Part shown: one piece after another, positions 988-4,525 of the stretch
Layout of the letters: every line of letters starts with the position of its first letter
Position numbering within the stretch: the first letter of the stretch is position 1
From: a virus
Lineage: Duplodnaviria; Caudoviricetes
Virus record (IMG/VR): IMGVR_UViG_3300044675_007236
Reading direction: 5' to 3' (one strand)
DNA: 64,000 nucleotides
Notes under the pieces: model-generated
Database searches by the model: none
Seen by the model: the letters and a program-made list of their open reading frames with translations, nothing else
What the model was told of the DNA's origin: nothing
Translations under genes and position numbers: made by a program

Positions 988-1207
988 TGTTATCATCCTC
1001 TGAAATTGTCGGAGGAGACCAACTATTTAAGCTAACTCTATCAGAGGGAGGTGCTCCTTCGCCTGCTATTAACTCTTCCAGAGGTTTGCCGCTAGGCACC
1101 TCGGTTTGATTGACTAGCAACTGCGGTGGAGAAAATGAGGACGACGGCCAATTCAGCGGTCGCAATTGTTTTCTCCGGCTAAAGGCGAAAGAACTTCTGG
1201 TCGGCAT
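980..1207 (-). CDS. Hypothetical Pro/Ser-rich protein
   Basis: Strong GGGGAGG Shine-Dalgarno upstream of ATG; tiles with neighbours. Confidence 0.55.
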   Translation of the reverse strand: MPTRSSFAFSRRKQLRPLNWPSSSFSPPQLLVNQTEVPSGKPLEELIAGEGAPPSDRVSLNSWSPPTISEDDNNG

Positions 1208-1227
1208 TGTGGCCTCCCCTCTGTGGG

Positions 1228-1374
1228 TTACTCTTTGTTATCTTGTCCAAAAACCATATTATGGACGGCGGCGACGGTCATTAAAAGACCGGCACCTATC
1301 AAAATTACGGACTTGGCGGCAAACGATGCCACCCCGATTATTGCTTTGGCTGTGAGAGACAGCAAGTCAAACAC
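1228..1374 (-). CDS. Small membrane protein (not in ORF track)
   Basis: Hand-translated from GTG: VFDLLSLTAKAIIGVASFAAKSVILIGAGLLMTVAAVHNMVFGQDNKE*. Confidence 0.45.
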   Translation of the reverse strand: MFDLLSLTAKAIIGVASFAAKSVILIGAGLLMTVAAVHNMVFGQDNKE

Positions 1375-1393
1375 AGTATCACTTAGCTTAAAA

Positions 1394-4300
1394 ATGACAT
1401 CCTCCTACGATTTGATTAAAAATGCCAGAATGACCTCTAGCGAGGTCATGGCAGAAGAACAAGCACACGATCCTTACGTTATCAGCGAAACTAAGCTGGT
1501 AAACGTAGCTCGGCAGATGGGCTACAAGCCGTCTGCATCGACAAGCCTTGTGGAACGCAGATTACACTTGGCGGATTTTATGCTGAAATCGTCGGGATAC
1601 CCGACGCTTCAGCCACTTCTTCCGCTACTGCTTTCCATCAGGGGCAAGCCCTATCACTTACATGATCACTTTCCGTTTGCTCCTTTCTTTAGAACGAGAA
1701 TGGCACGGACGACGCTGCTAAAAACGGGCCGTCAAGTGAGTAAAAGTACTTCACTGGCAGCTCAAGGTGTTTTGTTCTCAAACTGCATACCGTACTTCAG
1801 TACGCTTTTTCTTACGCCTTTGTTTGAAATGATCCGGCGGTTTTCTCAAAACTACGTCGCAGAATTCATTACAACAAGCCCTGTAGGCCGACTGTTCACT
1901 GACGAAACTACCGTGAACAACGTACTACAACGTTCGTTTAAGAATAGATCTAAGATGATCTTTTCTTTTGCCTACCTGGACGCCGAGAGAACTCGAGGTA
2001 TCTCTGCCGACAAAAACTGCCTCGTCGGAAATACCATGTTGGAGCTTTCTGACGGTAACTTTGTCGCCATAAAAAATGCTAAACCAGGCATGGCTGTACT
2101 TTCTACGGATAAGAATGGTACAATCAGTACCGATGTAATAACTGAGGTGCTGTATCACGGCGTGCAGCCTGTTTTTGAGGTTAAGTTTTCCGGCGGTGAA
2201 GTTGTACGGTGTACTGCAGATGAGCGATTTAGAACAGCCAGCACAAAACAGTGGAAATATTTGGCAGAGCTTGTACCAGAACTGCTCGAATTCCAAAACG
2301 GACAAGCGAAAGCGGAACCAGGACAAACCTTTAAGCTACCCGCAGAAACAAATGCTACTAGGTTGCTTACTAGGCGATTCCGGAATAGCTCAAGCTTCAA
2401 AAACCTCAAATTACCGAATATATTTCAGACACGGACTGAAACAAAAACAGTACTGTCAGGACAAAGCCGACACTTTGGCCGAGTTTGTTTCAACCCAACC
2501 GAAAGAAGTGCTCAACCGAGGCTACGGAAAAAAGTCGGTAATATTTGCTACTGTTTCAAGTCCTGCGTTTCTGGAAATAGCTCGAACTGTCACCGTCGAA
2601 GGCAAAAAAACGGTAACTACAACTTGGGCAAATCAACTGGATTGGGCGGCAATAGCTTATTGGTACATGGACGACGGAAGCTGCGGTGCTCGAAGAAGCA
2701 ATTGTGTTTTTCATACACAAGGGTTTTCAAAAGCCGAGTGCGAAATACTTTCAAGCCGATTAAAAGAGCTGGGCATCTACAACAAGGTGACGCCTGTAAA
2801 AAACAAAAATCAAGCCAGGCCGTATTACGTGCTTTGTCTAACTGCCGAGAGTTCTCGAAAATTAGCGCTAAATATTGCACCTTGGGTGCATCCGTCTATG
2901 CGTTACAAAATCCCAAGACAAAAAGAAACAGTAATCTGTTCAATGTGTGGATCGATTTTTTCGGGTCGAAAAGACCAGCTGGAGGCAAAAGAAGCTATTT
3001 GCAAAAAAGAAAATTGCAAAAAACTTCGACACAGAAAGTTGAATTTGGAATATCGCGAAAGAAAGAGAGCTGCGAAAGTTCGGTTATAACTTGTGTAACC
3101 TATGTCGGCTTACGTCCAACTTGGGATATAAACACAGCGAAGTATCATTCATTTTTTGCTAACGGTGTAAATTGCCATAACTGTATAGACGAGATCCAGG
3201 ACATGGATATCTCGTTTCTACCTGTTATTCACGAGACTATTTCTGCCTCACGCTCTTGGGGAATCAAGCAATATGCTGGAACTCCCAAGACACTTGACAA
3301 CACAATCGAGCGGCTTTGGATAGATAGTTCCATGGCCGAGTGGATTATCAAATGCCCTCACGGAGGCTGCGGTCACTGGAATATTCCTTCACTAGATCAC
3401 GATCTTCTCAAAATGATCGGACCGGTTCACGACGGCATTAGCGACACGTGTCCAGGTGTTATTTGTGCTAAGTGTGCAAAACCAATCAATCCAAGACCAC
3501 CCTACCAGGGCGGAACTGGACGGTGGTTGCACCGGCATCCCGATAAGCGTTGGAGCTTTGCTGGCTACCATGTGCCTCAGCTTATCATGCCTATGCACTA
3601 CGCTAGCCGCGAGAAGTGGCAAACGCTAGTCGATAAACGAGATGGCAAAGGTAACACACCTATCCACGTTTTTTACAACGAAGTATGCGGCGAGTCGTGG
3701 GACTCAGGTAGCAAGCTTGTAACCATTACAGATCTCAAACGTGCTGCGTGCCTGCCGTGGAAAAATACCATGGAGACAGCTCGAAATAACATCGACGGCT
3801 ATTTGTACCGCTTTGTGGCCGTTGACTGGGGTGGAGGTGGCGTTAGCAACGGTAAAAGCGATCTTGCGTTGCAGTCTTACACTTCGATTGCGGTATGCGG
3901 TCTTTGTCCTGATGGTCGCGTGGACGTTATTTACGGGTACCGAAGTATGACACCGCACGAGCACGAACGCGAAGCCGGTTTGATTTTGAACATCATGGGA
4001 GCTTTCAAGTGTTCTCACGTTGTTCACGATTACACAGGAGCCGGTACAGTGCGAGAAACGCTGCTAGTGCAGGCTAGGCTTCCTCGAGAAAGGATTCTTC
4101 CTGTGGCCTACACTGGGCCTGCCAAGGGTGGTTTGATAGGTTACAAACCTGCAAACCCGAAACACCCTCGAGATCACTATGTAATGGACAGAAATCGAGC
4201 TTTGAATTACTGCTGTCAATTCATCAAAGGTGGGGTTATTAGATTCTTCGAATACGACTACAAAGGATCAGATGATGTCGGTCTTTTGCACGACTTTTTG

Positions 4301-4525
4301 AATTTAATCGAAGACAAAGCCGAGTCTGGATCCGGCAGGGACACTTACAAGATTTTGCGAGATCCTGCCGGACCTGATGACTTTGCACAAGCTGTTACCA
4401 TGGGCTCAATGATGCTGTTCCAAATGGCAGGTAGGTTTCCAGACCTATCAGCCTACAAGGACATAGAGATAAGCGACGATGTGCTACTCTCTACCCAGGG
4501 TATTAAGGACATGGATTGGTACTAG
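1394..4525 (+). CDS. terL: Terminase large subunit (gpA-like), intein-containing
   Basis: Walker A-like LLKTGRQVSKST; Walker B reconstituted after intein removal (GISADKN|CIDEIQD); Cys-rich zinc ribbon CPHGGCGH...CAKC; nuclease motif VAVDWGG. Start moved to ATG 1394 (1430 and 1448 also possible) because 1166-1374 overlaps minus-strand genes. Confidence 0.9.
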   Translation: MTSSYDLIKNARMTSSEVMAEEQAHDPYVISETKLVNVARQMGYKPSASTSLVERRLHLADFMLKSSGYPTLQPLLPLLLSIRGKPYHLHDHFPFAPFFRTRMARTTLLKTGRQVSKSTSLAAQGVLFSNCIPYFSTLFLTPLFEMIRRFSQNYVAEFITTSPVGRLFTDETTVNNVLQRSFKNRSKMIFSFAYLDAERTRGISADKNCLVGNTMLELSDGNFVAIKNAKPGMAVLSTDKNGTISTDVITEVLYHGVQPVFEVKFSGGEVVRCTADERFRTASTKQWKYLAELVPELLEFQNGQAKAEPGQTFKLPAETNATRLLTRRFRNSSSFKNLKLPNIFQTRTETKTVLSGQSRHFGRVCFNPTERSAQPRLRKKVGNICYCFKSCVSGNSSNCHRRRQKNGNYNLGKSTGLGGNSLLVHGRRKLRCSKKQLCFSYTRVFKSRVRNTFKPIKRAGHLQQGDACKKQKSSQAVLRALSNCREFSKISAKYCTLGASVYALQNPKTKRNSNLFNVWIDFFGSKRPAGGKRSYLQKRKLQKTSTQKVEFGISRKKESCESSVITCVTYVGLRPTWDINTAKYHSFFANGVNCHNCIDEIQDMDISFLPVIHETISASRSWGIKQYAGTPKTLDNTIERLWIDSSMAEWIIKCPHGGCGHWNIPSLDHDLLKMIGPVHDGISDTCPGVICAKCAKPINPRPPYQGGTGRWLHRHPDKRWSFAGYHVPQLIMPMHYASREKWQTLVDKRDGKGNTPIHVFYNEVCGESWDSGSKLVTITDLKRAACLPWKNTMETARNNIDGYLYRFVAVDWGGGGVSNGKSDLALQSYTSIAVCGLCPDGRVDVIYGYRSMTPHEHEREAGLILNIMGAFKCSHVVHDYTGAGTVRETLLVQARLPRERILPVAYTGPAKGGLIGYKPANPKHPRDHYVMDRNRALNYCCQFIKGGVIRFFEYDYKGSDDVGLLHDFLNLIEDKAESGSGRDTYKILRDPAGPDDFAQAVTMGSMMLFQMAGRFPDLSAYKDIEISDDVLLSTQGIKDMDWY
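2018..3181 (+). mobile_element. Intein (388 aa) in terminase, inserted just before the Walker B motif
   Basis: Block A CLVGNTMLELSDG at 2018; block B-like VRCTADERF; block F TYVGLRPTWDI; block G FFANGVNCHN followed by Cys+1 at 3182. Confidence 0.9.
2220..3089 (+). CDS. LAGLIDADG homing endonuclease nested out of frame inside the intein
   Basis: Two LAGLIDADG helices (MLLGCLLGDSGI; IAYWYMDDGS), FHTQGFS motif, C-terminal CxxC...CxxxxC. Frame differs from terL. ATG 2220 has GGTG 8 nt upstream; TAA at 3087-3089. Confidence 0.88.
   Translation: MSDLEQPAQNSGNIWQSLYQNCSNSKTDKRKRNQDKPLSYPQKQMLLGCLLGDSGIAQASKTSNYRIYFRHGLKQKQYCQDKADTLAEFVSTQPKEVLNRGYGKKSVIFATVSSPAFLEIARTVTVEGKKTVTTTWANQLDWAAIAYWYMDDGSCGARRSNCVFHTQGFSKAECEILSSRLKELGIYNKVTPVKNKNQARPYYVLCLTAESSRKLALNIAPWVHPSMRYKIPRQKETVICSMCGSIFSGRKDQLEAKEAICKKENCKKLRHRKLNLEYRERKRAAKVRL

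Follow-up and report, generated by a model that had tools for sequence, protein, structure and literature searches.

How can an essential phage gene hold a homing endonuclease that is written one base out of its reading frame? The question is raised by terL, the gene for the terminase large subunit, in a 64,000-nucleotide stretch of DNA (the window) that is part of the 175,160-base IMG/VR virus record IMGVR_UViG_3300044675_007236 (Caudoviricetes). DNA of the window turned up again in 14 or more metagenome runs of lake water or fresh water (dated 2016 to 2024); the phage is an uncultivated one from lake water, of ~175 kb. An earlier note, made from the letters of the sequence alone, had read terL as carrying an intein with a separate endonuclease overprinted in the +1 frame; the reading frames, a match to Pfam family PF03161, and a model of the splicing (Hint) domain agree with both the layout and its coordinates (Table 1). 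Very likely, terL houses a mobile intein in its Walker B region, with the splicing domain in the terL frame and an independent endonuclease gene in the +1 frame. This reading is carried by two open frames and the selection on them, by purifying selection on the endonuclease, by two modeled folds, by a precise insertion, and by the recurrence of the layout in relatives.

The terL frame is free of stops from 1166 to 4525 (1,119 amino acids), with ATG 1394 as its likely start, and its two ends match the terminase large subunit profile PHROG 675 (E = 5e-36) and, weakly, Pfam GpA_ATPase. Residues 285 to 672 of this open reading frame (ORF) make up the intein, which has the termini of class 1: Cys1 (2018 to 2020), His-Asn (3176 to 3181, ...VNCHN), and a Cys at position +1 (3182 to 3184, CIDEIQD). 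Among 17 IMG/VR relatives of terL (C-extein identity, 47 to 89%), none has the Walker B intein, and the N-extein adjoins the C-extein directly in all. The intein-free DNA of L001 to L012 and L014 reads GACAAGAAT followed immediately by TGTATCGAT, an uninterrupted ADKN/CIDE (slashes mark insertion points). Relative to such alleles, the intein is inserted precisely and in frame. Because intein-free relatives encode exactly ...ADKN/CIDEIQD..., the ligated product that the earlier note had predicted is that of a normal ATPase Walker B region. Relatives without an intein at this site reach 87 to 89% identity, which counts for intein mobility. One intein-free allele has GTA (Val) at +1 (L004:6001-6003) where the others have TGT (Cys), and so could not support splicing if invaded. 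In the terL relative L013 (C-extein identity, 87%), the Walker B site is empty and the Walker A loop holds another intein, a canonical one with its LAGLIDADG domain in frame (L013:4470-5728; GRQVSK/T...ASHN/S). Inteins thus target two ATPase motifs in this terL family.

The 388-residue intein was modeled with AlphaFold2 from a nine-row alignment, a shallow depth at which disorder of the middle region is supportive only. Intein residues 1 to 105 (predicted local distance difference test [pLDDT], 74 to 92) and 350 to 388 (pLDDT, 85 to 90) packed as one beta-rich Hint domain, with the block F Asp kept. This Hint part aligned with the Ssp DnaB mini-intein (1mi8; VIA-align Z, 21.1; root mean square deviation, 1.3 Å; 133 of 141 residues) and with the Npu DnaB intein (4o1r; VIA-align Z, 20.8), and on this model the two terL-frame ends of the intein form a complete Hint splicing domain. 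The passenger between them (residues 108 to 349) was modeled at a pLDDT of 25 to 36 and is predicted to have no fold of its own. Its composition is rich in K (12%), R (11%), and S (11%), and its only conserved motif, LLVHGRR, simply arises when the endonuclease motif AYWYMDDG is read from one base earlier.

In the +1 frame, 2175 to 3089 is open. The endonuclease ORF in it, on the same strand as terL, starts at an ATG of its own (2220), ends at a TAA of its own (3087 to 3089) just before block F, and is enclosed entirely by the splicing blocks. The encoded protein matches PF03161 (LAGLIDADG_2; E = 6.5e-30; 104.7 bits, cut-off 25), PHROG 11023 (E = 5e-15), and, over essentially their whole chains, I-WcaI (6x1j; E = 6.5e-12) and I-SceI (E of ~8e-10). 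An AlphaFold2 model built from a 46-row alignment (mean pLDDT, 90.8; predicted template modeling score, 0.81) is uncertain only in the first ~30 residues, and Foldseek matched it to I-WcaI (6x1j), I-SceI (1r7m), and 3oor (E = 1e-15 to 1e-14; template modeling score, 0.79 to 0.80 of the target). As modeled, the endonuclease has the monomeric, I-SceI-like, two-domain alpha/beta LAGLIDADG fold.

Both frames are open well beyond chance. With the endonuclease protein fixed and synonymous codons drawn from extein usage (1,500 draws), the overlap was expected to hold a mean of 21.4 terL-frame stops and holds 0 (Poisson P of ~5e-10; the earlier note had roughly estimated about 1e-6 or lower); none of the 1,500 draws was stop-free, and codon shuffling of the endonuclease gave an expectation of 20.6. 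A T in front of an endonuclease codon that starts with AA, AG, or GA makes a terL-frame stop, and T precedes 0 of the 87 such codons, versus 33% of the other codons (P of ~6e-16). In the remaining, third frame, this stretch contains 19 stops. Homologues, which had been proposed as a check, agree: in 11 of 11 distinct out-of-frame loci (the window and ten relatives; overlap GC content, 0.37 to 0.63), the host frame has zero stops where 9 to 32 are expected. Selection maintains a stop-free terL frame through the overlap.

The kind of selection differs between the frames. The window was aligned with L019, a relative described below, and substitutions were counted by codon position in 60-nucleotide bins. 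From 1982 to 2221 and from 3122 onwards, differences concentrate at terL third positions (10 to 15 of 20 per bin); from 2342 to 3001, they shift to the first positions of terL codons, where the third positions of endonuclease codons lie (10 to 17 of 20 per bin). The zones 2222 to 2341 and 3002 to 3121 are mixed, and divergence is unusually low at 2282 to 2341, as expected where both proteins are functional. T2843C is the only natural polymorphism (cluster members P0014 and P0016 carry C560R, and run X8 reads C), and it is silent in the endonuclease frame (Table 1). The earlier note had taken both frames to be constrained. Both are indeed kept open, but these patterns point to ordinary, protein-level purifying selection on the endonuclease and to a terL frame that is, over 2342 to 3001, only kept stop-free. 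Since substitutions and polymorphism favor the endonuclease frame, the endonuclease is, or until very recently was, a functional protein.

TABLE 1 Coordinates in the window of terL, its intein, and the overprinted endonuclease gene
Feature	Coordinates	Strand	Basis or remarks
terL (terminase large subunit) precursor gene	1394..4525	+	PHROG 675, GpA_ATPase, IMG/VR relatives
N-extein	1394..2017	+	Ends ...GISADKN right before Walker B segment CIDE
Intein, 388 codons, terL frame	2018..3181	+	Hint fold model; precise insertion versus empty alleles
N-terminal splicing subdomain, blocks A and B	2018..2338	+	pLDDT 74-92; L019 differences mostly at terL third positions in 1982-2221
Homing endonuclease gene, 289 amino acids	2220..3089	+	+1 frame; PF03161; I-WcaI/I-SceI sequence and fold matches
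Passenger segment, 242 codons	2339..3064	+	Low pLDDT, Lys/Arg/Ser-rich, stop-free, otherwise unconstrained
LAGLIDADG motif 1, LLGCLLGD	2355..2378	+	Catalytic Asp 2376-2378; G, L, G, D nearly invariant in 46 members
LAGLIDADG motif 2, AYWYMDDG	2655..2678	+	Asp-Asp 2670-2675; A, Y, W, M, D, D, G invariant in 46 members
Natural T/C polymorphism	2843	+	Cys to Arg in terL frame; ACT to ACC (Thr), synonymous in endonuclease frame
CxxC...Cx4C zinc-ribbon-like module, then basic helix	2937..3017	+	Conserved in L019; pLDDT 90-97
C-terminal splicing subdomain, blocks F and G, ends VNCHN	3065..3181	+	pLDDT 85-90; Asp and Asn invariant in nine inteins

A blastn search of the terL region against 50,697 phage records gave zero matches, and when proteins were searched by word index for the intein part of terL, the window's own 90% cluster was all that came back; intein homologues were therefore reached through the endonuclease instead. 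Metagenome contigs were scanned with the endonuclease alignment and then checked for frame. The Logan contig L019 (GC content, 0.62) encodes an endonuclease 50% identical to that of the window at the same terL site and has the same layout, with the terL frame open over the whole contig and the endonuclease in the +1 frame, its stop just before block F. The closest further relatives (L023 to L030 and L035; 33 to 39% identity) all lie within long host ORFs that are open one base out of register; the genes that house them belong to several terL families, in which the intein follows the Asp-Glu of Walker B, or encode a DEGH-box helicase-like protein. One further out-of-frame case (L137) came from IMG/VR. 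The same scan recovered the cyanobacterial DnaX intein (L073 to L075), which has the opposite frame offset, while more distant members of the endonuclease family are free-standing or in frame within canonical inteins.

The insertion sites of these elements are close neighbors. In the window and L019 the intein stands before C-I-D-E, and in L023, L024, L027, and L035 it follows Asp-Glu, at a point of this Walker B motif that lies four codons further downstream, so that related elements use two neighboring sites. The terL of L023 (L023:979-4449) has two inteins, a mini-intein at Walker A (...ASHN/S) and the one with the out-of-frame endonuclease after the Walker B Asp-Glu. Zinc-ribbon-like modules occur in one to four copies in L023 to L030 and L035; two to four tandem CxxC...Cx4C modules with Lys/Arg-rich linkers were seen in L029:2982-4349, L023:1709-3070, and L024:2329-3600, and one in the window. 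Such tandem modules may be a modular DNA-binding extension. On a single contig of the same endonuclease clade (L041:1-2263), the N-extein, N-intein, and endonuclease share one frame up to a stop at 1219 to 1221. The +1 frame, which overlaps it from 1175 and has an internal ATG, then encodes the C-intein and C-extein. In L041, either the endonuclease would be fused to the N-half of a natural split intein, or frameshifting would occur at a single junction.

A quick, unrooted maximum-likelihood tree of the endonucleases, which gives no direction of change, places that of the window in a group of six, all of them intact out-of-frame terL cases (Shimodaira-Hasegawa-like approximate likelihood ratio test [SH-aLRT], 91). 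The DnaX endonuclease groups with the free-standing endonucleases L037 and L056 and not with the window's clade (SH-aLRT, 96). At least two origins of the out-of-frame layout are needed on starred branches, and four on the best tree. N-terminal CxCGCG zinc-finger repeats are common to the DnaX endonuclease (L073:1080-2096) and the free-standing L037:3422-4606 and L056:3380-4630, which, together with the tree grouping, fits the capture of a free-standing gene.

How would two proteins be made from one stretch? The endonuclease gene takes the place that an in-frame endonuclease domain has in canonical inteins. Ribosomes on terL would read straight through the overlap and produce an unstructured passenger of roughly 240 residues; the Hint domain would then excise the whole 388-residue intein and join ...ADKN to CIDEIQD..., restoring the ATPase (predicted peptide across the ligated-extein junction, ...ISADKNCIDEIQDM...). 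The endonuclease would most likely be a free protein of ~33 kDa, made by internal initiation on terL mRNA, with ATG 2220 or perhaps ATG 2352 as its start. The enzyme would be expected to cut intein-free terL at the ADKN/CIDE junction, whereupon repair would copy the intein in.

The earlier note had left a free protein and a +1 frameshift side by side as routes to the endonuclease. The former is the better supported and the latter a minor rival. An ATG lies upstream of motif 1 in every out-of-frame relative (6 to 47 codons before it; 132 in DnaX), and in L025, L026, and L028 the endonuclease frame opens just 3 to 17 codons before its ATG, which leaves little room for a frameshift. Shine-Dalgarno-like sequences stand upstream in L028 (AAGGGGGA), L029 (GGAGAG), and L019 (GGGAG). 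Within the window, independent initiation at ATG 2220 is the probable route. The alternative is ATG 2352, the only Met conserved in L019, or a near-cognate codon; the homology to I-SceI begins at about nucleotide 2286. In a crude first-ATG scan of the phage, a Shine-Dalgarno 5-mer preceded 8 of 42 long ORFs and any 4-mer preceded 18, and because strong sites are seldom used, such evidence is uninformative for the start. A crude long-ORF scan of the window (1 to 64000) put 38 of 42 ORFs of at least 150 amino acids on the - strand; terL is among very few long + strand genes, and the overprinted endonuclease is one of four + strand ORFs.

Several points weigh against a splicing intein with an independently translated endonuclease. 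In block B, the Thr of the TxxH motif is present, but Glu replaces the His (CTADERF), and this His is normally important for the first acyl shift. Glu also stands there in L019, L023, and L024, while His is kept in L025, L028, L029, and DnaX; the Glu lies in GAT-GAG in the window, which contains ATG 2220, and in GAC-GAG, without an ATG, in L019, so that the creation of ATG 2220 does not account for the Glu. Splicing competence is deduced solely from the essentiality of terL. The start is likewise uncertain, because ATG 2220, preceded by no more than a weak GGTG, lacks a counterpart in L019 and opens a protein whose first 30 residues are modeled at low confidence. The protein-level selection test consists of codon-position counts made mainly on one divergent pair, the window and L019. 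Contigs from RNA libraries cover 2111 to 2786 but may stem from DNA carry-over and are weak evidence of transcription. In sum, we infer that splicing takes place, which start codon is used, and what the endonuclease cleaves.

The frameshift route deserves a closer look, improbable as we consider it. Some ribosomes would shift +1 near 2290 to 2340 and make a chain of N-extein, N-intein, and endonuclease, and a second shift near 3060 to 3090 would yield a canonical bifunctional intein. The endonuclease frame is indeed open for 15 codons upstream of ATG 2220, conservation in the +1 frame starts near 2280, upstream of the sole conserved Met at 2352, and L041 indicates that an N-intein and an endonuclease are able to share one frame. 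However, the product of one shift would be without blocks F and G and could not splice, and no slippery or stop-triggered +1 motif was seen in 2222 to 2345 by eye, no formal scan having been run. The short open leaders in L025, L026, and L028 also speak against it, and given the opposite offset in DnaX, no single shift mechanism fits the family. It is very unlikely, too, that the locus is a decaying relic, in which a canonical in-frame intein has taken two compensating indels, the endonuclease frame is dead but still stop-free, and only the terL frame matters. A 2025 preprint (bioRxiv 10.1101/2025.01.02.630785) argues that out-of-frame endonuclease genes should decay fast after homing stops, and the local population is nearly clonal, so that recent function is not readable from polymorphism. 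Against decay stand the same layout in L019 at 50% endonuclease identity, with substitutions concentrated at endonuclease third positions, the invariance of both catalytic Asp motifs, the retained ATG starts, and the tree, in which every one of the six nearest endonucleases is intact and out of frame.

Scarcely credible is an origin of the pattern in a sequencing or assembly artefact, or in a group I intron that carries the endonuclease inside intein-like sequence. A single metagenome-assembled contig could in principle hold compensating indels, which the earlier note had proposed to look for in reads, but independent lake-water runs have none: their contigs show zero insertions or deletions over 1900 to 3300 (X8 spans all of it, and X11 spans both frame junctions), and the gene is identical in independent assemblies. 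The 1,100-residue terL-plus-intein protein is unchanged on at least seven contigs from separate JGI, NCBI, and Logan assemblies, L021 and L022 match the DNA of the window exactly across the gene, and contig X16 (2162 to 2499), from a metatranscriptome library, crosses the 5' frame junction unchanged. As for the intron, PF03161 endonucleases are typically intron-encoded, yet here a ribozyme core would find no space, the whole insert being taken up by the endonuclease ORF, and selection against terL-frame stops would be senseless for a spliced intron. The group I intron was rejected, as Rfam found none, nor any credible RNA, in 1500 to 3800 at E values up to 10.

The observation is thus real and its mechanistic reading largely right, but the architecture is not new, although the earlier note had thought it uncharacterized: it was proposed in 1998 for the Synechocystis DnaX intein and described in preprints of 2025 and 2026. 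As cited in these preprints (bioRxiv 10.1101/2025.01.02.630785 and 10.64898/2026.09.14.751524), Gorbalenya (1998) put the DnaX intein endonuclease in an alternative ORF; the two disagree on that ORF, which is antisense in the former and an alternative ORF in the latter. The 2026 dnaX preprint (Phillips, DeSimone, and Gogarten, bioRxiv 10.64898/2026.09.14.751524) reports that the in-frame region is disordered, that the +2 ORF yields a LAGLIDADG fold with confidence, and that selection depends on the frame, and it calls the arrangement a rarity. Like the window, the DnaX intein has a same-strand, out-of-frame PF03161 LAGLIDADG_2 endonuclease between its splicing blocks, a host-frame insert predicted to be disordered, and an endonuclease frame under purifying selection. 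Unlike the window, its host is bacterial dnaX, its host frame is the endonuclease frame +1 (in the window, the endonuclease frame is the host frame +1), and its endonuclease is extended at the N terminus by a long CxCGC zinc-finger region in place of the window's C-terminal zinc ribbon.

The 2025 survey of actinophages from the Gogarten laboratory (bioRxiv 10.1101/2025.01.02.630785) proposes that free-standing endonuclease genes invaded mini-inteins. Its inteins, which include terL cases, resemble that of the window in having a separate endonuclease ORF over a structureless host-frame insert, and the same origin is proposed for them; a same-strand, out-of-frame LAGLIDADG gene, however, falls outside its four listed architectures, and its hosts are cultivated actinophages. 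Canonical bifunctional inteins (e.g., PI-SceI) have the same Hint domain and the same endonuclease position, but their endonuclease is within the intein polypeptide, whereas the window intein carries a passenger predicted to be foldless. The LAGLIDADG_2 family is in frame in many phage inteins, and in-frame cases found here are P0009, P0011, L058, L059, L068, L083, L090, L094, and L101. In fractured genes, split inteins have a free-standing endonuclease gene between their halves (Dassa et al. 2009, PMC2677866). L041, from the window's endonuclease clade, resembles these or an intermediate form, while the window differs from them in its continuous host frame, from which cis-splicing and not trans-splicing would be expected. 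With I-SceI and I-WcaI (1r7m and 6x1j), the window endonuclease shares sequence and fold over the whole I-SceI chain and both catalytic Asp motifs, but those two are intron-encoded and it is not, it has an extra C-terminal zinc ribbon and basic helix, and identity is only ~25%.

New here are a same-strand, out-of-frame, I-SceI-like LAGLIDADG endonuclease in phage terL, closest relatives that form a consistently out-of-frame group (six sampled tree members) across several ATPase hosts, and an explicit synonymous-site signature of stop avoidance. The locus is a clean natural case of ~870 nucleotides of dual coding in an essential gene under two kinds of constraint. It also carries a warning for annotation, as gene callers give only the long terL ORF and miss the endonuclease. 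A mini-intein that tolerates an arbitrary insert of ~240 residues, together with a compact nuclease, may be of use in protein engineering.

For the family, terL inteins with a same-strand, out-of-frame LAGLIDADG endonuclease join the class that the 2026 preprint calls a rarity, and the consistently out-of-frame relatives support a model of intein origin in which the splicing domain came first and the endonuclease invaded later. Tentatively, overprinting could even be a stable, specialized lifestyle and not a short-lived accident that precedes an in-frame intein, although we regard this as doubtful. The lifestyle would be that of a zinc-ribbon, I-SceI-like clade living only out of frame in mini-inteins at the Walker B motifs of phage ATPases, namely those of several terL families and of a helicase-like gene. 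If it were so, synonymous sites would be adjusted so that the host frame stays open, and the layout would bring two advantages: a nuclease that may be toxic would be expressed at a low level coupled to terL, and the endonuclease gene would be shielded from deletion, since most indels in it would kill terL.

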